Part shown: piece after piece, positions 27,793 through 43,768 of the stretch
Position numbering within the stretch: position 1 is the stretch's first letter
Layout of the letters: the number at the start of each line of letters is the position of its first letter
Assembly: GCA_965205685.1 (NCBI GenBank)
Contig: OZ242174.1
Location: 141,406-205,405 of the forward strand
Reading direction: 5' to 3'
DNA length: 64,000 nt
Origin: Gammaproteobacteria bacterium
GTDB taxonomy: Bacteria; Pseudomonadota; Gammaproteobacteria; UBA4575
Notes under the pieces: model-generated
The model's database searches: none
What the model was told of the DNA's origin: nothing
The model's input: only the letters and a program-made list of their open reading frames with translations
Position numbers and translations under genes: made by a program

Positions 27793-29304
27793 ATGGCATT
27801 AGAGATCAGGTTTGGACATGAAAATTTTGCTAACTATAAGCGACTATCTTACAAATGGTGGTTTGCCTTGGCCGAATTCGTCGATAATTCAACACAGTCC
27901 TACTTCGATCATAGTGAGATACTTAAACCTGTATACGAAAAAGAGAAAGAAAGGTTTTTTGTGAACATTTCCACGGACGAAGATTTTATTCGAGTACGTG
28001 ACAATGCCATGGGCATGGATCTCGAGGACTTACAAAATGCCATGGTAGTTGGCATACCCCCAAAAAATACTAGTGGTCGATCACAATATGGGCTCGGAAT
28101 GAAAACTGCGGCCTGCTGGATCGGGGACAAGTGGAAAATTATAACAACTAAATTAGGTAGCCCATTTGAATACACAGTAAATGTGAATGTAAATGAAGTG
28201 TCAAAAGGGAATATAGTCCCCCCAGTTGATGAGAGAGAGATTTCTTCGGATGATCATTACACTGTTATTGAAATCACAGAGCACCACCGACCATTGCGTG
28301 GGAGAACAATTACAAAAGTCAAAGAGTATCTTGAAAGTATCTACCGAGTAGATATTTCTCTTGGAGAAATGTTACTCCAGTACAACGACCTTGAATTGAA
28401 TTGGAATGGCTTTTCTGACCATGATTTCCTAAAGCGTAAGGATAGTACAGCTTATAGAGAACATTTTATTTTTGAAATTGACACTGAGCCCAAGAAAGTT
28501 GTTGAAGGTTGGGTAGGAGTACTGCAAAAGGGTTCACGTGCTAAGGCTGGATTCTCTATATTTCACCGAAAACGTTTAATCAAAGGTTGGCCGGATAGCT
28601 GGCGTCCTGAGAAAGTTTTTGGAGTTGGTGGAAGGAATGACTTAATCAACCAACGCGTAGTAGGGGAAATAAACCTGGAAGATTTTGAAATTTCCCACAC
28701 TAAGGATGAAATTAACTGGAATGGTCTGGAAGAGGAGCTAGTTGAAGAGGGGTTATTGAAGCGTTGCAAACCGTATATGGAAACAGCTCGAAAAGCTCGA
28801 AAAGGGCAAGCAGTAGACCATGGTCCCACTGATGTCCAAGTGGATGTTGCTGTCCAAACTTTACAGGAAGAGCTTACAGCACCTGAGTTTTTGGAAGCAT
28901 TAGAACTAGAAGAAGTTCTTCCGCCATTGAGCCAAATTAAAGCAAGTAATGAACATATAGTCACTAATGCTTCAAATATTGACCCTGCATTTATAGTAAA
29001 CCTTAGGGATATGAATATTCGTGTCTACATAGACACAATAGGCTCGCCAAACGATCCATATTTTGTTAATCAAGATGTCGATGATGCCTCACTCGTGATA
29101 GTAATCAATAAGCAGCACCCACACTGGCTGATGCTCGAGGGCGAGAATTCCGTGGTGAATTATATGCGGCACTGTGTTTATGATGGGGTTGCTGAGTATC
29201 GCGCCACACGATTAAGTAGAGTTGAGTCAGACTCTGTAAAGAGACTGAAAGATATGTACTTGAGGATCCCCTTCGAAATATTACAGCGTGAAGAGGAAGA
29301 GTAG
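27793..29304 (+). CDS. GHKL-superfamily ATPase (HATPase_c_3 / MORC-like)
   Basis: N-box ALAEFVDNS, G1 box DNAMGMD and G2 box GLGMKTA. 503 aa. It is the last gene of the helicase operon. Confidence 0.6.
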   Translation: MALEIRFGHENFANYKRLSYKWWFALAEFVDNSTQSYFDHSEILKPVYEKEKERFFVNISTDEDFIRVRDNAMGMDLEDLQNAMVVGIPPKNTSGRSQYGLGMKTAACWIGDKWKIITTKLGSPFEYTVNVNVNEVSKGNIVPPVDEREISSDDHYTVIEITEHHRPLRGRTITKVKEYLESIYRVDISLGEMLLQYNDLELNWNGFSDHDFLKRKDSTAYREHFIFEIDTEPKKVVEGWVGVLQKGSRAKAGFSIFHRKRLIKGWPDSWRPEKVFGVGGRNDLINQRVVGEINLEDFEISHTKDEINWNGLEEELVEEGLLKRCKPYMETARKARKGQAVDHGPTDVQVDVAVQTLQEELTAPEFLEALELEEVLPPLSQIKASNEHIVTNASNIDPAFIVNLRDMNIRVYIDTIGSPNDPYFVNQDVDDASLVIVINKQHPHWLMLEGENSVVNYMRHCVYDGVAEYRATRLSRVESDSVKRLKDMYLRIPFEILQREEEE

Positions 29305-29580: not shown

Positions 29581-32102
29581 GTGCATCAAACCTTTAACCA
29601 TGTGTGCCGGTGCTTTACACCGAACAGGCACGAGGATGGCCCTTTGGCTGACAACCCACTAGCTCTGGAAACCGTCACGCGCGATCCGGTCTGCGGGATG
29701 ACCGTCGACCCGCAAGCAGGGAAGCCCTGTTTCGAGCATGACGGGCACATGTATCATTTTTGCCACGATGGTTGCCGCGGCAAGTTCGTGATGGATCCCG
29801 AACCCTATATCAAAGCGGTGGACCCCGTTTGCGGCATGAAGGTCAACCGCGCTACGGCAAGTTTTATCACGAGGCACATGGGTCAGTGCCACTATTTCTG
29901 CTCTGGCCATTGCCTGGATAAGTTCGAGACTGATCCGGACACTTACCTGGAAGGCCGCTTAACAGCAGAACCTGTACCAGAAGGTACACTCTATACCTGC
30001 CCGATGGATCCCGAAATCGTGCAAGAGGAACCGGGTGATTGTCCGATCTGTGGCATGGCACTGGAGCCGATGATGCCCACGGTTGATTCGGGCCCGAATC
30101 CTGAACTCGTCGATTTCAGGCACAGGCTCCTGATCGGCGCGCCCCTGACTCTGGCAGTCTTGCTGCTCGAGATGGGAGGCATGCTGGGGATTCCGTGGAA
30201 TGACTGGTTCGGACCAGCGGCGGTTCGCTGGCTTCAGTTTGTATTGGCCACGCCGGTCGTGGCCTGGGTTGGTCTGCCCTTCTTCAAGCGCGGCTGGTCA
30301 TCCGTGGTCACTGGCAACCTCAACATGTGGACGCTGATCGCCATCGGTACCGGTACAGCCTATGCGTTCAGCGTGGTTTCGCTGATTGCACCGTGGGTTT
30401 TTCCTGCTGACCTAGGAAACGGTCACCCTCCGCCGCTTTATTTCGAGGCAAGTGCAGTCATCCTCATCCTGGTGCTTGTCGGACAGGTGCTGGAACTGAC
30501 AGCCCGCGACCGAACGGGAGATGCGATTCGGGCACTGATGGATCTCTCGCCAAAAACCGTCCGGCTGGTGACGGCTTCGGGTGAGGCAGACGTGCCGCTT
30601 GAAACTATCAAGACAGGAGACCAGCTTCGCGTGCGTCCCGGGGAGGCGGTACCTGTCGATGGCACTGTCACCGAGGGTCACTCATCGGTGGATGAAAGCA
30701 TGCTCACAGGCGAGCCGGTTCCCGTTGAAAAAACCGAGGGCGATTCGATCACTGGCGGCACGCTGAACAAGACGGGCTCGTTCGTGATGCAGGCCAGGGC
30801 TGTAGGCAGCGACACGGTCTTGTCCCGGATCATCGCCATGGTCGCACAGGCACAACGATCGCGGGCACCGATCCAGGCACTGGCCGACAGGGTCGCCTCG
30901 TATTTTGTTCCCGTCGTCATTTCTGTCGCTGTACTGGCCTTTATCGTATGGATGATCTGGGGTCCGGCACCGGCGCTCAGTTACGCCATCGTTTCTGCCG
31001 TCAGCGTCCTCATCATTGCCTGTCCCTGTGCACTCGGGCTCGCCACACCGATGTCCATCATGGTGGCGACAGGACGTGGCGCACAGGCGGGCGTGCTGAT
31101 CCGGGATGCAGAAGCACTGGAACGGTTTGCAAGCGTAGACGCCCTGATCATCGACAAGACGGGCACGCTCACGGAAGGGCGGCCGAGCCTGGCCGATATC
31201 GTGGCGTTCGGTGATGCATCCGAGGACCGGGTGCTCGCACTGGCTGCGGCCCTTGAACGCGGGTCGGAGCATCCGATGGCCGAGGCCATTCTCAGGGCAT
31301 CCCAGGAAAGAAACATCGAACGCCTCACACGACGGGCTTTGATGCGGTGACCGGCAAGGGAGTCAAAGGTCAGGTCAGCGACTTGTCGGTGGCATTTGGC
31401 AACGCGAAGCTGATGGGGGATCTGGGCATCGATGTTTCTGCTGCCCAAACCCAGTTAGCCCAGCTTCAAAATGAAGGCAAGACGGTCATGCTGCTGGCTG
31501 TGGATGGAGTGCTTTGCGGCCTCATCGCCGTGGCAGACCGCATCAAGGAGACCACACCCGGTGCCATCCAAGCTTTGCACAAGGCAGGCCTCAAGATCAT
31601 CATGGCGACCGGGGACAGCCGACAGACTGCCGAGGTGGTCGCTGCCAAGCTCGGGATCGACGAGGTCCGCGCAGAAATATCCCCTGAGGACAAGGCGACA
31701 CTTGTTGCTGAAGTCCGCAACAGGGGGCTTTCGGTTGCGATGGCGGGCGATGGCGTGAACGACGCTCCGGCCCTGGCTGCAGCAGACGTGGGAATCGCCA
31801 TGGGAAGCGGCTCCGATGTAGCTGTAGAGAGTGCCAGCATGACGTTGGTGAAAGGAGATCTACGCGGCATTGTCCGGGCCCGGCTGCTGGCACGTGGAAC
31901 AACGCGCAACATTCGCCAGAATCTATTCTTTGCCTTTGTCTACAACAGCATCGGCGTACCCGTAGCTGCAGGTGTGCTTTTTCCCGTTTTCGGAATCCTG
32001 CTGTCTCCGATGATTGCTGCTGCCGCCATGAGCCTCTCTTCAGTCTCGGTGATTGGCAATGCATTGAGACTGCGCCGAGTCCACTTGTATACTGGTGGCT
32101 GA
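29581..32102 (+). pseudogene. copA: Copper-translocating P1B-type ATPase (CopA family) interrupted by a frameshift near 31320-31350
   Basis: N-terminal YHS/TRASH-like Cys motifs (DPVCGM x2, YTCPMDPEI...CPICGM), CPC and DKTGTLT in the first ORF, and GDGVNDAPAL with the C-terminal TMs in the second ORF (31347-32102). The reading frame switches between ...ERNIE and [12 protein letters not shown]. Confidence 0.7.
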
Positions 32103-33515: not shown

Positions 33516-33724
33516 GCAACCTTTCTAGGCGCCACGCAGGGGGTTGTCAATCTTTTTCCATGCCGTCCTATCGGTTCCATAAGGGATTGTAATCGGTGGG
33601 TTTTCGCTACTGGCGAGAACGACGTCTGCGAGCGGCGCTGGCTGGCCCGTACAATCCCAATTCAAGTATAGTGATGCGAAAAGATTTCATCCGGGTCCAG
33701 AAGAACTTGCGGGGCAGTAAAAGA

Positions 33725-34477
33725 ATGACGAGACATGGCTTCCGGTTGCTGTTGGTCTTGATGCTGGGCACATGCCTTGGTGCTTGCAGCACTCCATCTT
33801 CAGAGTCCACATCGAGCCTGCCGGTACCCGAGTCCAGTCCTTCCCGGGAGTCCCAGCATGAAGACCCTCCCCAACCCCCGAATGAACAAACCGAGCAGCA
33901 TCCCCAGGACTCACCCCGCCAGCCGCAGGAAACGATCGATCCCGAGGCAAGGACATCCGATGCCCAAGCCCCTGTTCGTACTGACGATGAGGAAGTCGCC
34001 GTCCTCGACCAGCAACTTGAAGAGGCGTTGGGACGCTATGACGAACAGATCCACAAGGAATTCGAAAAGGCGCAGGCCGAAAGACGGGCACACGGACAAG
34101 AAGTGCCTGCCGGTGCAGGACAAGAGGCGGGATCCGAGCGGGAATCTGCCCACGCAATGGACCCTGCGACCCAGGCAGGAAAGACGTCCGGAGCCGAAGC
34201 ACAAGCCGGCACTCGTTCATCATCGGCTGAGAGCGGAGATCCGGACGATGACTCGAAGGAAAGTGCAGAAGAACGAAAAAACAGGGGGGCTCACAGCGCA
34301 CCGCCGCCGGCTGATATTCCCAGTGGAGACGATGATGATGTCGTTGCCAGGCAACTTCGGGAAGCCGCACAAAAGGAGCGTGATCCCGTGTTGCGCGACA
34401 AGCTTTGGGACGAGTACCGCAAGTACAAGAAGCAGCAGGCGAGCGCGACCTCCTCGCCTGCTGCTGAAGGCGAATGA
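33725..34477 (+). CDS. Lipoprotein with acidic, Pro/Glu/Ser-rich disordered region
   Basis: Signal peptide with lipobox LGAC (MTRHGFRLLLVLMLGTCLGACS). The rest is low-complexity and acidic. First gene of the co-directional operon. Confidence 0.5.
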   Translation: MTRHGFRLLLVLMLGTCLGACSTPSSESTSSLPVPESSPSRESQHEDPPQPPNEQTEQHPQDSPRQPQETIDPEARTSDAQAPVRTDDEEVAVLDQQLEEALGRYDEQIHKEFEKAQAERRAHGQEVPAGAGQEAGSERESAHAMDPATQAGKTSGAEAQAGTRSSSAESGDPDDDSKESAEERKNRGAHSAPPPADIPSGDDDDVVARQLREAAQKERDPVLRDKLWDEYRKYKKQQASATSSPAAEGE

Positions 34478-35653: not shown

Positions 35654-37198
35654 ATGCGCGAGGACAAGTCCACACCGGTTGAACCGATCGATCCCGCATC
35701 GCTGCGCGCCGCTGGCGCTGATTCCGGCAATCAGCTCTCCAATGCCAACCGGAACGCCCTGCTTGCCCTTGTGTTCGTCGGGCTGGCGGCAGTGGCGGTG
35801 CTGGTGTTCTGGATATTGCCCGGGGTGGTCGACCAGCAACGATCCTCCGGGCCGCTGAACCAGGAACCCCCTGTACCCCTGCACGAGCCTCCCGAGACTT
35901 ACTCCGAGCCGAGCGGTGTACCCGAAGCCCTGGCTGAAATGCCTGCAGGGCTTGCTGAACAGGAGTACGCAGCCCTGAGGCTGCAGGCTGAAACCTTATT
36001 GCTGAGTATGATTGAAAAACAGGACGCCTTGCAGCAGCAAGGGGTCAAGCAGTGGGCAGGCCAGGACTATGCCGATGCGGTTGCGAGTGGGCAGGCCGGG
36101 GATGCGCATTTCCGCAAACAGGATTTCGCCGAGGCGATCCGCCTGTACACTCAGTCGGCGGACGCCCTGCAGGCCCTGCAAAACCGCGTCGATGCAGTGC
36201 TCGACCAGGCACTCTTGCAAGGGGAACAGGCCCTGTTGCAAAATCTGGCCGAGGTTGCAAAACAGCATTTCAGCCTGGCTCTCAGCATCGATTCACACAA
36301 CCGCCGGGCCCTCGAGGGCCTGAAACGGGCTGAAACCCTCGGTGAGCTGTTCGAATTGCTGGAGACGGGCGGTCACTTCGAGGCTGCCAACCGCCTGCAG
36401 GCCTCTGAACAGGCGTACCGGCAGGCCGTCACCCTGGACCCGCTGTCTGCCGAGGCTGCCGCTGCACTGCAGCGCATCACGGAGCGCCTGACCGAGGCGG
36501 AGTTTTCCCGGCAGATGAGCCAGGCGTATGCCCTGCTGCAATCCCACCAGTTCGAAGATGCTCGTGCAGCGTTTCGCAAGGCCCAGGAACTGGTACCCTA
36601 CTCCAAGCGCCCCGCCCAGGGATTGCGCCGAGTCGATGAGGTCGTGCGCGAGGAAAAAATCGCTTCACTGAAAGCTGAAGCATCCCATTTTGAGAAACAG
36701 GAACAATGGTCCCTTGCTGCACAGAGCTGGCAGCAACTGCTGTCGCTGGACCCGCAAGCCCCTCACGCCGGGGAAGCTGCTACCCGAACCCAGTACCGCG
36801 CAGCCTTGCTTTCGAAGCTGGACCATTATCTGGAACATCAAGAGCGCTTGTACTCTACGGACGTATCGGCCGAGGCACAGGCACTGCTGGATGAGATCTC
36901 CGCCCTGGACCACAGCCCGGGCCGTCGCATCCTGCAAAGTGCAGAAGCCCTGCAGGGCGTGCTGGTGCTGGCCCGCCAGCCAGTCAGGATTGCCCTGTAT
37001 TCGGACAACCAGACCGAGGTGACCATTTTCCGGGTCGGCAAGCTCGGGCGCTTCGAACATCAGGACGTTCGGCTCAAGCCGGGCCAGTACACGATCATCG
37101 GCTCGCGGCCCGGCTACCGTGACGTACGAAAAACCCTCCACGTGACCCCGGACATGAAGGCCGAGCGCCTGAGTATTCTATGTGAAGAGACGATCTGA
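35654..37198 (+). CDS. Bitopic membrane protein with TPR-like repeats and C-terminal PEGA-like beta domain
   Basis: N-terminal TM helix (LLALVFVGLAAVAVLVFWILPGV), helical TPR-like repeats, and a C-terminal PEGA-like segment (GQYTIIGSRPGYRDVRKTLHVTP). Confidence 0.45.
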   Translation: MREDKSTPVEPIDPASLRAAGADSGNQLSNANRNALLALVFVGLAAVAVLVFWILPGVVDQQRSSGPLNQEPPVPLHEPPETYSEPSGVPEALAEMPAGLAEQEYAALRLQAETLLLSMIEKQDALQQQGVKQWAGQDYADAVASGQAGDAHFRKQDFAEAIRLYTQSADALQALQNRVDAVLDQALLQGEQALLQNLAEVAKQHFSLALSIDSHNRRALEGLKRAETLGELFELLETGGHFEAANRLQASEQAYRQAVTLDPLSAEAAAALQRITERLTEAEFSRQMSQAYALLQSHQFEDARAAFRKAQELVPYSKRPAQGLRRVDEVVREEKIASLKAEASHFEKQEQWSLAAQSWQQLLSLDPQAPHAGEAATRTQYRAALLSKLDHYLEHQERLYSTDVSAEAQALLDEISALDHSPGRRILQSAEALQGVLVLARQPVRIALYSDNQTEVTIFRVGKLGRFEHQDVRLKPGQYTIIGSRPGYRDVRKTLHVTPDMKAERLSILCEETI

Positions 37199-39253
37199 CC
37201 CTGCAGTCCCGCACGGCGAGGTGATCCGGCCCGTGGCGCTGCCCGAGACGGCCTACCGAAAATCGAAGCGCCCGGGCCGTCGCCTTCTGACCCTGACCGG
37301 GGCGCTCATCTTTCTCTCCCTGGTTCTGCTCCTCTTCCACGTGCTGACATCCAAAAGCCTGCAGATCGAGATTGACCCGCCGGCGGACTCGATCAGCCTG
37401 CGGGGCATGCCTTGGCCCGTCCATGTGCAGGGACGTTACCTGGTGCGCCCTGGCAGCTACAGGCTGCAGGCAGGGCGGGCTGGATACCATCCCTTGGAGC
37501 GGGATATCCAGGTCGGCACACAGGCCTCCCAGACGCTCACGTTCTCCCTGCTCAAACTCCCGGGCTACCTGGACATCACCAGCGCCCCCGAACACGGGGT
37601 ACACATTCAGATTGACGGCACATCCTTCGGCAGCACTCCGATCAGGCGCCTTCAACTTGCAGCCGGAACCTATGTCCTGCAGGCGACAGCCGATCGTTAC
37701 CTGCCCTACACCACACAGCTGGTCATCGAGGGCGAGCACAGGCAACAGGATCTTGAAATCCAGTTGCAGCCCGGTTGGGCGGAAGTGTCCATCGATTCAC
37801 AGCCCCCGCATGCGGAGGCTTGGCTGGACGGGACCCGCCAGGGACACACGCCCCTGAGACTGGAACTGATGGCCGGGGAATACCGTCTTGACCTGCACCA
37901 CCCGGACTACCTGCCCTACACCGTGGATTTTCTGGTGGTCGCTGGCCAGCCGCTGGAGCTGCCGCCGGCACAGTTGCAGGCCGGCACCGCTCATGTGAGG
38001 ATTACCAGCGTTCCTCCCGGTGCACGCGTCACCATTGCAGACCTCGACAAAGGCCAAACCCCGTTAAGTCTCGCGCTGGCTCCGAATGCCGAGCACCACA
38101 TTACCCTGACCAAGCCTGGCTACCGTCCCGGCCACCAAATCCTCAAGACCGAGCCGGGACAACAGAAAACCGTCACTTTGCATTTGGAAGCCCTGCTGGG
38201 CACCGTAGTCGTGCAGGCCACCCCTGAGGATGCCGAGGTGCTCGTCGAGGGCAAAACCGCAGGCCGCGGCAAACTCCGCCTTGAGCTGCCGAGCGCACCG
38301 CAGCGCCTTGAGGTGCGAAAACCCGGATATCTCAGCCACACGCAATCCATCACTCCGCTCGTGGACACCCCGCAGGTCATCGCCGTCACGTTGAAACCGG
38401 CTGCAGCCCGCAGCAGATATGACCCGCCCGCCCGCATCACCACCCACCAGGGCGAGACCCTTATCCGCCTGGACGGCGGTACATTTACCATGGGTGCCCC
38501 GCGGCGTGAACAGGGGCGGCGCACCAACGAAACCCAGCACAGCGTCACACTGCAACGACCGTTCTACATGGCCACCCGCGAGGTCACCAATGCCCAGTTC
38601 AATGCTTTCATGCCTTCCCATCTCTCCGGCAACTACCGTGGCCATGACCTGTCCGCCCCCGACCTTCCGGTCGTCAACCTCACCTGGGCGGATGCGGTGC
38701 GCTACTGCAACTGGCTGAGCGAGCGCGAAGGGCTGGAGCCCGTGTACGAGGAAAAAAACGGAACCTGGGTGGCCAAGACACCCCTCCCCGCCGGCTACCG
38801 CCTGCCCACGGAGAGCGAATGGGAATGGGCAGCCCGCTGGGGCCCCGGCGGGAAGCTGGCGAAATATGCCTGGGGTCATGAGTACCCGCCGGTGGAGGTG
38901 ACCGGGAATTACGCGGACCATGCTGCCAGCGGCCTGCTTGAGGACATCATCGACGGCTATGACGACGGATTTGCGGTGGCCGCACCGGTGGGAAGCTTCA
39001 GGCCCAATCCGCTGGGCCTGTTCGACCTGGACGGCAACGTCGCCGAATGGTGCCACGACTACCACAGCATCTATCCAGCCCTGAGCGAGAAGACCTATGT
39101 AGACCCGGCGGCCCTACCACGGGAACCAAGCACGTCATCCGTGGTGCTTCCTGGATGCGCAGCACCCTCAGCAGCACTCGACTCAGCTACAGGGATCAGG
39201 ATAATAACCGGCATGTTGATGTTGGTTTCCGTATTGCCCGATACCTGGATTAG
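37182..39253 (+). CDS. Membrane-anchored PEGA-repeat protein with C-terminal FGE-sulfatase (SUMF1-like) domain; reading frame shifts near 39100-39130
   Basis: One TM helix, about five PEGA repeats (PGY...TP pattern), then FGE-domain motifs (GGTFTMG, RPFYMATREVTNAQFNAFM, YRLPTESEWEWAARWG, NPLGLFDLDGNVAEWCHD). The canonical FGE end (HVIRGASWMRS...VGFRIARYLD) is in a different frame, 39047-39253. Confidence 0.65.
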
Positions 39254-39259
39254 TGGGGT

Positions 39260-39496
39260 ATGAGACTTTGCGCGGCGTTGTTGCTGGCCATGCTGGTTCT
39301 TCCTCTTGCAGCCACCCCCGAGCCCACAGAAGAGATGCCTGAGAACACCGCAACGCCTGAAGCCCACCCGGGTGAAGACGCTGCTCGCAGGGCAGCTGGG
39401 AAACGCGGCACACGACGCGCCCCGCCCCTGGAGGAGTTCGTACCCAGCGAAGAAGTCTCTGCCGACAAGCCCGTGAGTTTTCCAACGGACATCTGA
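39260..39496 (+). CDS. Small secreted protein (signal peptide), hypothetical
   Basis: 78 aa with an N-terminal signal peptide (MRLCAALLLAMLVLPLAAT). Tightly packed between operon genes. Confidence 0.35.
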   Translation: MRLCAALLLAMLVLPLAATPEPTEEMPENTATPEAHPGEDAARRAAGKRGTRRAPPLEEFVPSEEVSADKPVSFPTDI

Positions 39497-40314: not shown

Positions 40315-41685
40315 GTGTCCACGGTTGTCATCGATCTGTACGACAGCGGAATCCTGATCAGCGACGGAAAACGCATCCTCGCCAACTGCCCGTCCTGTGC
40401 CCTGGTTGAAACCGAGACCTCCATCCTGACAGGCAAGCAGGCCGAGCAGCAAATACACCTGCGACCGCAGGAAATCAGCACGGGGTTTTGGGCGGACCTT
40501 GCCGGGCAAAGCACGACCCGGCATGCCGTCAGCCATGCCGAGATCGCATTCAGGCACATGCAGTTTGCCTGGAGCCTGCTGGACCGACAGGACCACGATG
40601 CCATCCTTGCGGTGTCCGGCGCGCTGCGCAAGCAGGAACTGGGGCTGGTGCTCGGCATCTGCGAAAAACTCGGCATTGCGGTCGTTGGCATCGTCAACAA
40701 GGCGGTGCTCGCGGTCCCCGGCCCCGTTCCGAAGACCCGGCTGGTGTGGCTGGCCGTGCTGCAGCAGAGCACTATACTCACCCTGGTCTCGCAGGACCGC
40801 AAGCAGGTGTCCGCCACCCGCCCGGGAAGAGTCATTGAACACGGGCTGCAGTCCCTAATCCAGGCACAAGCCAAGTGGATCGCCGCGGCCTTTGTCCGGG
40901 AAACACGCTTCGACCCCCTGCAAAAGGGTGAAGACGAACAACGTCTGTATGAAAGACTTCCGCACTGGCTGGCGACCCTGCAGTCCATCGAGTCCGTCGG
41001 CTGCGAACTGCACTCCGATGGACAGGGCCACCGCATACAGCTGCACAGAAAGGACGTCCTCGAGATCAACCGGGCTGCCTTCGAGGAGATGGCGATTTCC
41101 CTGAGTGAGCTGCTCCCAGACCACAAGGTCACGCTCGTGTGCTCCCCGACCTGCAACCAGGTGTTTGGTCTGAACGAATTCCTGAAGGACCTGCCGGGGT
41201 GCGCCATGCTGGGCACGGACCCGACCCGCATTGCCCGCCAGGCCCTGCGCTACCGCGAACAGATCAGCAGCGGCGATGCGACCGTGCATTACACGACCGC
41301 GCTGGCCTGGGACAAATCCACCCGTCCCGAGTTGCTGGAACCCAATCCCGGGTTGCTGGCCAGCCTGCGCAACTGTCCCACCCACTTGCTGATCGGCAAC
41401 CGTGCCTGGCCACTGGGCCCGAAACAGGAACTGCGCCTGACGAAGGACCGCCATGAGATTCACCTGGAACTCGATCCGGTTTGCAATGACCGCGGCATTT
41501 GCCGGATCCAGAAAAAAGGCATGCGCATCGAGTTGCGCCACCTCAGGGAGTACAAGATCCGTCTCAATGACCGGCTCCTGAGCGAGCCCCAGCCGATCCA
41601 GTCCGGAGACCGCCTGCGTATTGACGGGTACCGCGGGACCGTACACTTCATCCAGGTCCAGGAACATGAAGCGTCGCACGATTAA
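40315..41685 (+). CDS. Cytoplasmic protein with possible actin/Hsp70-like N-terminal fold and FHA-like C-terminal domain
   Basis: The N-terminus VVIDLYDSGILISDG looks like an ASKHA phosphate-1 loop. The C-terminal 100 aa (LLIGNRAW...HEIHLEL...IRLNDRLL...GDRLRIDG) follow the FHA pattern. No TM segment. Both assignments are tentative. Confidence 0.4.
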   Translation: MSTVVIDLYDSGILISDGKRILANCPSCALVETETSILTGKQAEQQIHLRPQEISTGFWADLAGQSTTRHAVSHAEIAFRHMQFAWSLLDRQDHDAILAVSGALRKQELGLVLGICEKLGIAVVGIVNKAVLAVPGPVPKTRLVWLAVLQQSTILTLVSQDRKQVSATRPGRVIEHGLQSLIQAQAKWIAAAFVRETRFDPLQKGEDEQRLYERLPHWLATLQSIESVGCELHSDGQGHRIQLHRKDVLEINRAAFEEMAISLSELLPDHKVTLVCSPTCNQVFGLNEFLKDLPGCAMLGTDPTRIARQALRYREQISSGDATVHYTTALAWDKSTRPELLEPNPGLLASLRNCPTHLLIGNRAWPLGPKQELRLTKDRHEIHLELDPVCNDRGICRIQKKGMRIELRHLREYKIRLNDRLLSEPQPIQSGDRLRIDGYRGTVHFIQVQEHEASHD

Positions 41686-42757
41686 CGTATTCAGCCTGTC
41701 CTTCCTGGACGTGATGTTTTGCGGTTTCGGGGCGGTCATCCTGTTTTTCATGATCATCAATGCTGATTCGCAGGCGCGTCGCGGCATGGTCAATGCCACC
41801 GCGCAGGATGAAGTGCAGGAACTGCAGGCCCAGGTCACCGAGGCCGAGCGCTCGCTGGCGGAACTGCAAAACTCCCTGCAGATGCTCGAAACGCGCCGTC
41901 TGCGGGCACAGGGACGCGCTGCAAGTATCCTTGAGGACATTACCCTGCACACCTCGCAACTATCCCGACAGCAACAGGAGACCCGTGCCAGGATGCAAGC
42001 CGTCGATGCGCTCAAGGCGGAACTGAAATCCCTGGAGGAGGCGCACCGGCGTCTTGAGGCAGGCGCCTTGCAGGACGAGACCCCGGGGGCGTACCTGCGC
42101 GCATTCGACGGTCACGGGCAGCGCCAGTACCTGACCGGCCTCAAGATGGACGGTGAGCGCATCCTGATCCTGGTGGACAGCTCGGCCAGCATGCTGGCCG
42201 ATCGCATCATCAACGTGCTTCGCTTTCGAAACCTTCCACCGGATGAACGGGTGCGCGCGGCCAAGTGGCAGCAGGTGCTGCACACGGTCGACTGGATCAC
42301 CACACGAATCCCGCCCACCAGCCTGTTCCAGATCCATGCCTTCAATGAGACCAGCGAACCGCTCTACCAAGCTTCGGACGCGGTCTGGCTGGATGCCAGC
42401 GATCCCCGGCACCTGGATCTTGCGGTGGAGGGCCTGTACGCGCGTGCGCCGGGCGGCGGCACCAGCCTGTACCAGGCCTTCAGGGGGATCGCGCAGCTGG
42501 ATCCGCCCCCGGACACCATCTACCTGCTGACGGACGGGCTCCCCACACAGGGTCGCTCGAAACCCTGGCGCACCAAGGTGTCCGCGCAAGCGCGCAAGAA
42601 GCTGTTCGATGATGCACTGAAGATCCTGCCTGGCGGGATTCCCGTCAATACCATCCTGTTCCACATGGAAGGTGACCCGCAGGCCTCCAGTGAATACTGG
42701 AAGCTGGCGAGCACCACCCGGGGAGCCTTTTTCAGCCCCTCCCGGGACTGGCCCTGA
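41666..42757 (+). CDS. ExbD/TolR-like N-terminal TM anchor fused to coiled coil and vWA domain (paralog 1)
   Basis: The N-terminus MKRRTINVFSLSFLDVMFCGFGAVILFFMI mirrors the ExbD/TolR TM region. A long coiled coil follows, then a vWA with MIDAS-like residues (ILVDSSASM...LTDG). Confidence 0.6.
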   Translation: MKRRTINVFSLSFLDVMFCGFGAVILFFMIINADSQARRGMVNATAQDEVQELQAQVTEAERSLAELQNSLQMLETRRLRAQGRAASILEDITLHTSQLSRQQQETRARMQAVDALKAELKSLEEAHRRLEAGALQDETPGAYLRAFDGHGQRQYLTGLKMDGERILILVDSSASMLADRIINVLRFRNLPPDERVRAAKWQQVLHTVDWITTRIPPTSLFQIHAFNETSEPLYQASDAVWLDASDPRHLDLAVEGLYARAPGGGTSLYQAFRGIAQLDPPPDTIYLLTDGLPTQGRSKPWRTKVSAQARKKLFDDALKILPGGIPVNTILFHMEGDPQASSEYWKLASTTRGAFFSPSRDWP

Positions 42758-42760
42758 AAC

Positions 42761-43768
42761 ATGAAACCGCGTCGCAGCATCGAGATTTTCAGCCTGTCCT
42801 TCCTGGACTGCATATGCTGCGGCTTCGGTGCGCTGATCCTGCTGCTGGTGCTGTCGAAAACGGCCGAGCCGGTGATCTTCGAGCAATACAGCGAAGACCT
42901 CGACCGGCATGCCACGGACCTGCAGATGCAGTTGTCCGAACTGCACGGGCAAAACCACGCACTGAACCGCGAACGGATCAGACAAAAGCACCAGGTGACC
43001 CGCGAGATAGAAAAAATCGCGCACCTGCAGGATGAGCTGTCAATCGTGCAAGGCCGGTATTCGACCGCGCAAGGCGAAGCGGCACTGCAGAACACGATCG
43101 AGGGCCAGCTGGCCCGCGCACGCCAGACGTTGAGCGAAGAGATGCGCCGCCTGCAGGCTAGGGACCTGCGGATCCGGCCATCACAGGATGCCACGATTGC
43201 CGGCATCCCGGTGGACAGCGAGTACATCATTTTCATCATCGACACTTCGGGCAGCATGCTGAGCTACGGCTGGGAACTGGCCGAGCAAAAGCTGGCCGAG
43301 GTGCTGGATGCCTACCCGACGGTCAAGGGCATGCAGGTCATGAACGACATGGGCGAGTACATGTTCCGCCAGTATGCCGGGCGCTGGATCCCGGACACTC
43401 CGGCACGGCGCAAGGCGGTGCTTGAGCGGCTGCGCACCTGGCAGCCGTTCAGTAACAGCAGTCCGGTCGAGGGCATCACGGCCGCCATCCGAACGTTTCA
43501 TGCAGACGACAAGAAAATCAGCCTGTACGTGTTCGGTGACGAATTCACCGGCGCCTCCATCCAGTCCGTGCTTCGCGAGGTGAATGCGATCAACCGCAAG
43601 GACCTGCACGGTGCGCGACGGGTGCGCATCCATGCCGTTGGTTTTCCGATCCAGTTCGCCCGGCTTGAGGACGAGCAAGTGACCGGCGTGCGCTTCGCCA
43701 CCCTGATGCGCGCTCTGTGCGAACAAAACGAGGGCACCTTCATCGGGCTGGCCGACTTCGCCCCCTAG
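42761..43768 (+). CDS. ExbD/TolR-like N-terminal TM anchor fused to coiled coil and vWA domain (paralog 2)
   Basis: The N-terminus MKPRRSIEIFSLSFLDCICCGFGALILLLVL, then a coiled coil, then a vWA (IIFIIDTSGSM...). It is clearly paralogous to the upstream gene. Confidence 0.6.
   Translation: MKPRRSIEIFSLSFLDCICCGFGALILLLVLSKTAEPVIFEQYSEDLDRHATDLQMQLSELHGQNHALNRERIRQKHQVTREIEKIAHLQDELSIVQGRYSTAQGEAALQNTIEGQLARARQTLSEEMRRLQARDLRIRPSQDATIAGIPVDSEYIIFIIDTSGSMLSYGWELAEQKLAEVLDAYPTVKGMQVMNDMGEYMFRQYAGRWIPDTPARRKAVLERLRTWQPFSNSSPVEGITAAIRTFHADDKKISLYVFGDEFTGASIQSVLREVNAINRKDLHGARRVRIHAVGFPIQFARLEDEQVTGVRFATLMRALCEQNEGTFIGLADFAP

Follow-up and report, generated by a model that had tools for sequence, protein, structure and literature searches.

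Which function do two tandem, membrane-anchored von Willebrand factor A (vWA) proteins serve when their genes stand in one operon with the gene of a MotA-like motor subunit? The question is raised by a locus of Gammaproteobacteria bacterium (lineage UBA4575; GenBank assembly GCA_965205685.1, contig OZ242174.1, positions 141,406 to 205,405), and the whole stretch of 64,000 nucleotides that was analysed is called the window below. Proton-driven 5:2 motors power flagella, Ton uptake, Tol-Pal envelope integrity, gliding, type IX secretion and Zorya defence. In the interpretation favoured here, to which a probability of about 0.6 is assigned, the two proteins, vWA1 and vWA2, are the two central 'axle' subunits of such a motor, of the MotAB/ExbBD/TolQR type.

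The vWA1 and vWA2 genes and their products

A preliminary description of the window had given the positions of both open reading frames (ORFs), and they were recovered there, on the plus strand, with exactly the N-termini quoted (coordinates are compiled in Table 1). The first 20 nt of vWA1 coincide with the last 20 nt of the gene before it, which encodes a protein of 456 residues. An AGGA sequence is located 8 nt upstream of the vWA1 ATG, and vWA2 starts 3 nt past the vWA1 stop codon. Taken together, this arrangement suggests co-translation in one operon. BLASTP aligned residues 1-178 of vWA1 and vWA2 with 29% identity (E=1e-14), and the profile-profile comparison with hhalign extended over 319 columns (Prob 99.6%, E=4.5e-24). 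By sequence, the two proteins are paralogs along their full length. For comparison, 80 related genomic loci with 10 kb flanks were used, and the residue conservation given below refers to the 81 vWA1 and 77 vWA2 orthologs from these loci and the window. Both genes were present as a tandem heterologous pair in all 80 loci.

The architecture given in the preliminary description, a basic N-terminus followed by a transmembrane (TM) helix, a long heptad coiled coil and a vWA domain, was borne out by an AlphaFold2 (AF2) model, by Foldseek searches and by the heptad register. The AF2 model of vWA1, made with 35 homologs, had a mean predicted local distance difference test (pLDDT) score of 79.8. It showed one unbroken helix from residue 13 to 132, in which membrane helix and stalk run on without a gap, a linker modelled with low confidence (residues 133-164) and a compact alpha/beta domain (residues 165-363) with a pLDDT of about 90. 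The coiled coil has about 95 residues in each protein, with a continuous heptad register in both. With residues 165-363 as query, Foldseek returned solved vWA domains at E-values of 1e-7 to 1e-5, among them those of Catenulispora (4fx5), ITIH1, alpha2-delta, CLCA1 and BatB (3ibs). The vWA fold of vWA2 was assigned by the profile alignment to vWA1 (Prob 99.6%). The Pfam model VWA_2 gave 21.6 and 20.2 bits with the window proteins, under its gathering score of 27 bits, and 36.2 bits, over that score, with the ortholog P0080. Precomputed Pfam annotation also places PF24161 on some vWA1 homologs (P0040, P0060, P0065-P0067 and others); this family was not recovered by a local Pfam scan at E<=1.

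The residues expected of a metal ion-dependent adhesion site (MIDAS) of the DxSxS type were conserved in both proteins, each in at least 97% of the orthologs: D171, S173, S175, T266 and D290 in vWA1, and D161, S163, S165, S233 and D260 in vWA2. The hhalign columns paired T266 with S233 and D290 with D260, so that the only change is from Thr to Ser in vWA2. Because of this conservation in both paralogs, the two sites look intact and apparently functional, and the integrity of the MIDAS, for which a check had been suggested, was thus confirmed at the level of the metal-binding residues. The C-terminus of vWA1 ends in D-W-P (42746-42754), which is invariant in the 35-sequence alignment; the W-P was conserved in at least 97% of the 81 orthologs, and vWA2 has no equivalent. 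The conservation suggests a C-terminal contact or sorting motif.

The BatB match bears on a reading already considered in the preliminary description, namely that vWA1 and vWA2 are BatA/BatB-type aerotolerance proteins, vWA membrane proteins that act with a MoxR ATPase. An N-terminal membrane anchor joined to a vWA domain is common to both groups, and BatB was one of many Foldseek matches. The match was generic, however, and ranked under several eukaryotic vWA domains, and no MoxR (AAA_3), DUF58 or BatD/E-type gene was present among the nine operon genes. The window pair further differs in its coiled-coil stalk, its TM Asp and its linkage to MotA, and to our knowledge neither the stalk nor the Asp is a feature of Bat proteins. 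This reading is therefore regarded as scarcely credible. In the vWA-MoxR conflict systems described in eLife in 2020, no linkage to MotA or ExbB was found.

The membrane helices carry the features on which the motor interpretation turns. The motif SLSFLDxxxCGFGA is common to vWA1 and vWA2, and both this motif and the Asp within it, D15 of vWA1 and D16 of vWA2, were conserved in at least 97% of the 81 and 77 orthologs, respectively; for the Asp this is what the preliminary description had led one to expect. The N-termini of both proteins are basic, and the flank on the C-terminal side of the TM helix is acidic or neutral. According to the positive-inside rule this points to an N-in orientation, in which stalk and vWA heads would lie in the periplasm. 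The stalk resembles a ruler, since the distance from the TM Asp to the leading Asp of the MIDAS hardly varied, with 156±2 residues in vWA1 and 144±2 residues in vWA2.

The MotA-like partner and the proposed motor

The MotA/TolQ/ExbB-family protein encoded upstream of the pair scored well above the PF01618 cut-off of 22.9 bits (Table 1). The preliminary description had mentioned a MotA-like gene next to the pair; it does belong to the same operon and to PF01618, but it is not directly adjacent, since the gene of the 456-residue protein lies between. Residues T189 and T222 of the MotA-like protein aligned with T145 and T178 of E. coli TolQ and with T148 and T181 of E. coli ExbB, and these pore threonines were kept in at least 95% of 76 MotA-like orthologs. 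The gene was found in 75 of the 80 loci, the remaining loci being contigs that end early, and its product in Gammaproteobacteria shared about 60% identity with that in Acidobacteriota. The protein appears to have four transmembrane helices. A protein search with the MotA profile yielded close orthologs only, so that no remote or reduced forms of the module came to light. With phmmer and E. coli TolR and ExbD as queries, no TolR or ExbD homolog was detected among the ORFs of at least 50 residues in the window and in the 80 loci with their flanks.

In the proposed mechanism a pentamer of the MotA-like protein would surround the membrane helices of vWA1 and vWA2. D15 and D16 would be located in the pore of the pentamer, facing T189 and T222, and would bind protons and let them go again. 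The periplasmic coiled coils of the two proteins, with about 95 residues and a length of about 14 nm, would pair as a heterodimeric stalk, and past the flexible linker the MIDAS vWA heads, raised above the inner membrane by about 14 nm, could grip partners via a metal ion. Likely partners would be the FGE-sulfatase domain that the operon encodes on a PEGA stalk, or the lipoproteins g293 and g390, and these may be natural ligands by analogy to GldM, which contacts the GldK/N ring. A further analogy is TagR of Pseudomonas aeruginosa, which acts on the periplasmic, vWA-containing C-terminal domain of PpkA (PMC3224232). More speculatively, the four PEGA repeats might bring the FGE-like domain up to about the level of the heads. 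In this way proton flow would be turned into rotation of, or pulling on, envelope components. In most lineages a TM Ser/Thr kinase with periplasmic TPR repeats and a protein with an Hsp70-like nucleotide-binding domain (NBD) and an FHA region would regulate the machine. From the features above we infer complex formation, the 5:1:1 stoichiometry, proton coupling, rotation, the head ligands and the cellular role.

Several results weigh against this interpretation, and most of them concern the relationship to ExbD and TolR. The preliminary description had called the similarity of the N-termini to the ExbD/TolR signature striking. On visual inspection there is indeed a resemblance, although a short one: E. 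coli ExbD has INVTPFIDVM and TolR INIVPLLDVL, compared with INVFSLSFLDVM in vWA1. The Pfam ExbD model (PF02472) did not match full-length vWA1 or vWA2 at E<=0.1, nor ten N-terminal fragments of 45 residues at E<=10. A profile of 40 N-terminal sequences found no ExbD, TolR or MotB chain among 177,635 PDB sequences. When compared by hhalign with a set of 41 distinct N-termini of ExbD/TolR proteins, collected in 80 metagenomic loci, the vWA helix gave Prob 2.4% and P=0.019, and the alignment consisted of 5 columns only (FLDVM with lvDVm). Control comparisons of the vWA helix with the membrane anchors of the operon's TPR protein resulted in P=0.021 and 0.006, and that of ExbD with the anchor of the PEGA protein in P=0.009. 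As the ExbD/TolR score was no better than those of unrelated anchors (P 0.006-0.02), homology is not supported; the claimed signature failed in the Pfam, PDB profile and hhalign tests, and no significant profile-profile relationship emerged. The periplasmic alpha/beta domain of ExbD and TolR is replaced in vWA1 and vWA2 by the coiled coil and the vWA domain. In the MotA-like protein, the position of ExbB E176 is occupied by Val, and its sole PDB relative was TolQ, with a weak match (E=0.006). The TolR-like role is thus drawn from context and one charged residue. A helix of 25 residues, however, gives such tests little power, so that their outcome lowers the probability that the proteins are ExbD/TolR homologs more than the probability that they work like them.

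The idea of paired TolR-like subunits therefore held in part. It agrees with the tandem pair in 80 of 80 loci, with the MotA-like gene in 75 of them, with the pore threonines and with the lack of a nearby TolR/ExbD gene, but not with any detectable homology.

The same data have to be weighed for another possibility, that the vWA proteins form a periplasmic scaffold or adhesion structure outside the motor pore. The MotA-like protein would then work with a TolR/ExbD encoded elsewhere, or the vWA proteins would dock to its outside in the manner of TonB/TolA. A helix without detectable ExbD/TolR homology would fit this arrangement, and a first vWA family with TonB-like side-docking is described in PMC12204202. 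On the other hand, the helix lacks the SHLS/His motif, as neither His nor SHLS occurred in the 143 distinct N-terminal segments listed, and a near-invariant Asp would be costly in a helix facing the lipid. The absence of tolR/exbD within 10 kb in the 80 loci also argues against a scaffold, and the strict 1:1 pairing of the paralogs fits two axle positions. The scaffold explanation is accordingly considered unlikely.

Predicted TPH-vWA proteins and known motors

The motor-axle idea has already been published as a computational prediction, so that the preliminary description is a rediscovery from raw sequence. TM-tethered "TPH-vWA" proteins that co-occur tightly with tolQ homologs, in the absence of tolR/exbD, were described in Mol Biol Evol 2025 msaf138 (PMC12204202; section 8, Fig. 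4c-d). They form mostly heterologous pairs, their 'transpore helix' bears a conserved Asp, and no phenotype is known for them. An AlphaFold3 model of that paper's own example puts the vWA helices inside a TolQ-like pentamer, with the Asp ringed by Thr, and lends independent support to the axle interpretation. The window pair shares with these proteins the TM-tethered vWA domain, the helix Asp without SHLS/His, the heterologous pairing, the tolQ-like partner with pore Thr and the lack of a nearby tolR/exbD. It differs in distribution: the published seed is from Idiomarina loihiensis, with matches mostly in Proteobacteria and Verrucomicrobia, compared with Gammaproteobacteria, Acidobacteriota, Myxococcota and Gemmatimonadota here. 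As a reservation to be set beside the other points against the axle interpretation, the likeness is one of shared described features, and the two may belong to the same or to sister families. The main text of PMC12204202 does not mention a PEGA or FHA domain, and no description of the lipoproteins, the TPR/kinase protein, the Hsp70-like protein or the gene intervening between MotA and the pair was found in it. What goes beyond that text is the nine-gene operon context and the co-variation of kinase and FHA. No further paper on a system of a vWA pair and a tolQ-like protein was found in a literature search.

With ExbB-ExbD as well as TolQ-TolR, the window system has in common a MotA/TolQ/ExbB partner with pore Thr, small N-in single-pass subunits with a membrane Asp, and a short xLDVM motif. 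In contrast to ExbD/TolR, the window pair is devoid of the characteristic periplasmic domain, gave no significant profile match and has the IN and D positions two residues further apart. It consists of two distinct axle subunits instead of a homodimer, and no third protein of the TonB/TolA type occurs. The partner also differs, having Val at ExbB E176 and apparently four TM helices.

In Myxococcus, AglR-AglQ-AglS contains a single MotA/TolQ homolog and, beside it, two TolR-like subunits that differ from each other, and the window system shares this composition, as well as TPR proteins and a vWA protein in the system. The Agl gliding motor is part of an envelope-spanning complex with TPR proteins and the vWA adhesin CglB (PMC9946355). 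AglQ and AglS, however, are TolR homologs of the usual small kind, the vWA protein CglB is an outer-membrane lipoprotein of its own that is not fused to the axle, and no Glt homologs were identified in this analysis.

An axle crossing the periplasm and a protein of the FGE-sulfatase family are found in the GldL-GldM/GldK-PorK system as well. The window FGE protein is anchored in the inner membrane via PEGA and is not a lipoprotein, and the proposed axle of the window system consists of a coiled coil that ends in vWA heads. The PEGA/FGE protein matched GldK with E=1.8e-27 and 96.7 bits, far under the cut-off of 350 bits of TIGR03525 (GldK/PorK), and GldJ with E=3.4e-16, also under the cut-off. 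The GldL, GldM and GldN models of NCBIfam had no match among the nine operon proteins. Membership in Zorya, the type IX secretion system (T9SS) or BatA/BatB was rejected, either because partner genes were missing or because the scores stayed under the thresholds.

In a wider reading, the vWA pair would be the axle of an uncharacterised trans-envelope machine of 8-9 genes with a cellular function of its own, of the same rank as Ton, Tol-Pal, Agl-Glt and the GldLM/T9SS core. This is put forward tentatively, at a little under even odds. A motor with an axle that bears two unlike metal-dependent adhesion domains at its tip would couple the energy of the membrane to the outer envelope in a distinct way. 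Direct experimental handles are offered by the constant length of the stalk, by the intact MIDAS sites and by the kinase/FHA arm, which is optional.

Distribution

A motif scan of 185,579 species-representative genomes, the counts of which are lower bounds, detected the architecture in at least 573 species-level genomes, nearly all of them metagenome-assembled. The matches listed included Gammaproteobacteria, Acidobacteriota, Myxococcota and Gemmatimonadota, and the nearest genome among them was a proteobacterial metagenome-assembled genome, SB0662_bin_53, with 95% identity. A HMMER scan of 1.84 billion cluster representatives (50% identity) with the vWA1 profile gave 474 clusters at E<=1e-30 and 1267 proteins at E<=1e-10. 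The homologs were named only 'VWA domain-containing protein' or 'hypothetical' in the databases. The fusion had at first been called unusual; in view of these numbers of genomes and clusters, it is not. The system is widespread in marine and sediment Gammaproteobacteria, in Acidobacteriota and in Myxococcota. Its abundance in uncultured sediment and symbiont bacteria and its retention in a genome of about 1.85 Mb suggest that its role in the envelope is probably important.

The nine-gene operon

Across phyla the genes were found in the fixed order g293, g390, TPR, PEGA/FGE, 78-residue protein, MotA-like, 456-residue protein, vWA1 and vWA2 (Table 1). A scan for promoters and terminators produced no decisive signal.

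Table 1. Positions of the nine operon genes and of the segments of vWA1 and vWA2 in the window.
Feature	Positions	Strand	Evidence and remarks
g293, acidic low-complexity lipoprotein, first gene	33596..34477	+	lipobox; probable start 33725 (MTRHGFRLLLVLMLGTCLGAC followed by S)
g390, second lipoprotein, 390 residues	34474..35646	+	lipobox LTSSC followed by A
TPR protein, 514 residues, membrane-anchored, periplasmic, PEGA-like C-terminus	35654..37198	+	TPR matches
PEGA x4 + FGE-sulfatase protein, membrane-anchored, GldK/GldJ-like	37182..39263	+	PEGA E=7e-44, FGE-sulfatase E=6e-41
Small secreted protein, 78 residues, signal peptide	39260..39496	+	sequence
MotA/TolQ/ExbB-family subunit, 265 residues	39502-40299	+	PF01618 E=6.8e-14, 52.2 bits
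Hsp70-NBD-like (actin-fold)/FHA cytoplasmic protein, 456 residues	40315..41685	+	AF2, Foldseek
vWA1, 363 residues	41666-42757	+	ORF, AF2, alignment
vWA1 TM helix	41687-41758	+	D15 codon at 41708-41710
vWA1 coiled coil	41759-42061	+	linker after it
vWA1 vWA domain	42158-42754	+	MIDAS DSSAS 42176-42190, plus T266, D290
vWA2, 335 residues	42761-43768	+	ORF, profile alignment to vWA1
vWA2 TM helix	42785-42853	+	D16 codon at 42806-42808
vWA2 coiled coil	42878-43150	+	
vWA2 vWA domain	43223-43765	+	MIDAS DTSGS 43241-43255, plus S233, D260

Orthologs of g293 occurred at the equivalent position in 58 of the 80 loci, and g390 was present in 62. Neither Pfam nor NCBIfam had a match for g293, and g390 had no relative in Pfam, NCBIfam or the PDB, even with a profile of 16 sequences. 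The lipobox in g390 orthologs is FSGC followed by S, and in both window lipoproteins the lipobox Cys is followed by Ser or Ala; both are probably outer-membrane lipoproteins.

The PEGA/FGE gene was found in 73 of the 80 loci. Compared with L001 and L002, one base is missing near position 39108 (GACCCGGC-GG versus GACCCGGCAGG), and in the affected region (39047-39263) the final approximately 50 codons are consequently read in the wrong frame; the frame ending at 39253 is the one that encodes the conserved C-terminus (...HVIRGASWMRSTLSSTRLSYRDQDNNRHVDVGFRIARYLD). The base is absent either through faulty sequencing or because the gene is truly frameshifted. The 78-residue protein was matched by sequence in 18 of the 80 loci, and a gene for a protein of this size stands at the equivalent position in L163.

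The 456-residue protein, whose gene was present in 70 of the 80 loci and for which 64 homologs were listed in the database search, gave an AF2 model with a pLDDT of 91.3. Its N-terminal approximately 350 residues matched Hsp70 NBDs in Foldseek (E 1e-16 to 1e-14). The C-terminus is a beta-sandwich, and distant homologs have an FHA domain (PF00498) at this place.

The location of the operon is also relevant to the possibility that it encodes a Zorya-type anti-phage defence, with the MotAB-like motor as an envelope sentinel. In favour of such a function, PADLOC weakly matched the MotA-like protein with ZorA2 (E=2e-4); the other PADLOC matches were coiled-coil noise, and no ZorB, ZorC, ZorD, nuclease or effector was found. 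As described above, the genes keep one order in all these phyla, and the MotA-like protein is conserved between Gammaproteobacteria and Acidobacteriota. The operon is surrounded by the housekeeping genes glmS, glmU and atp, the genome measures about 1.85 Mb, and no homolog of vWA1 was found in the plasmid collection. A defence function is thus highly improbable.

The kinase/FHA arm

In most other lineages the orthologs of the TPR protein start with a domain of the Ser/Thr kinase type, which the Pkinase model matched at E-values of 1e-22 to 1e-39. The kinase was present in 32 of 64 informative loci (L012, L016-L018, L022, L024, L047, L057, L163 and others), all of which also had the Hsp70-like/FHA gene, and the canonical FHA motif G[VI]SRxHC occurred in 25 of these 32. 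Of the 32 kinase-less loci, 7 lacked the Hsp70-like/FHA gene, and SRxH was found in none of the other 25. For the association between kinase and SRxH, Fisher p was 3.5e-10 (uncorrected for shared ancestry). The window belongs to the kinase-less group, and its SRxH motif, by which FHA binds phosphothreonine, is degenerate (NDRGIC). The TPR protein appears to have been a Ser/Thr kinase ancestrally, and the window lineage has lost both the kinase and the phosphopeptide-binding residues of FHA. The co-variation argues for signalling from the kinase by way of the FHA protein, and for an arm that regulates the machine and is not its core.

In the 7 loci in which both the kinase and the Hsp70-like/FHA gene are absent (L023, L036, L060, L068, L072, L073 and L080), vWA1 follows directly after MotA, and the MotA-like protein, the vWA pair, the PEGA-FGE protein, the TPR protein and the lipoproteins are all kept. 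As the machine is retained without kinase and FHA, the signalling arm seems dispensable and looks regulatory instead of being the output.

These loci also decide how much weight is given to the idea that the module is mainly an envelope sensor, in which ion flux or load on the stalk is read via the kinase and the FHA/Hsp70-like protein. TagR of Pseudomonas aeruginosa carries an FGE-sulfatase domain. The co-variation of kinase and FHA, and the co-occurrence of kinase, FHA, periplasmic vWA and an FGE-sulfatase-type protein, would agree with a sensor. A model for it is the PpkA-PppA-Fha1-TagR pathway of the P. aeruginosa H1 type VI secretion system, in which PpkA-TagR-Fha1 switch on secretion; it likewise has a TM Ser/Thr kinase, an FHA protein and a periplasmic vWA domain, which belongs to PpkA, and the periplasmic co-receptor TagR acts on the C-terminal domain of the kinase, in which the vWA domain is contained (PMC3224232). 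In that pathway, however, the vWA domain is fused to the kinase, while here it is placed on the motor axle and the kinase is joined to TPR repeats. The kinase is absent from the window, and no phosphatase or type VI gene was found among the nine operon genes scanned. Since the 7 loci devoid of both genes keep the rest of the machine, and since the window lineage retains it without the kinase, a primary sensor function is judged quite improbable.

Other observations in the window

A gene for a copper-type P-type ATPase (29581-32102) is split into the overlapping ORFs 29581-31350 and 31347-32102. It appears to be another frameshift, besides that in the PEGA/FGE gene, and points to assembly indel errors or to gene decay in a small genome. 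Between approximately 24000 and 30000 the GC content is 0.40-0.45, compared with about 0.60 elsewhere. This stretch, which holds an ORF of 503 residues (27793-29304), may be a horizontally acquired island.

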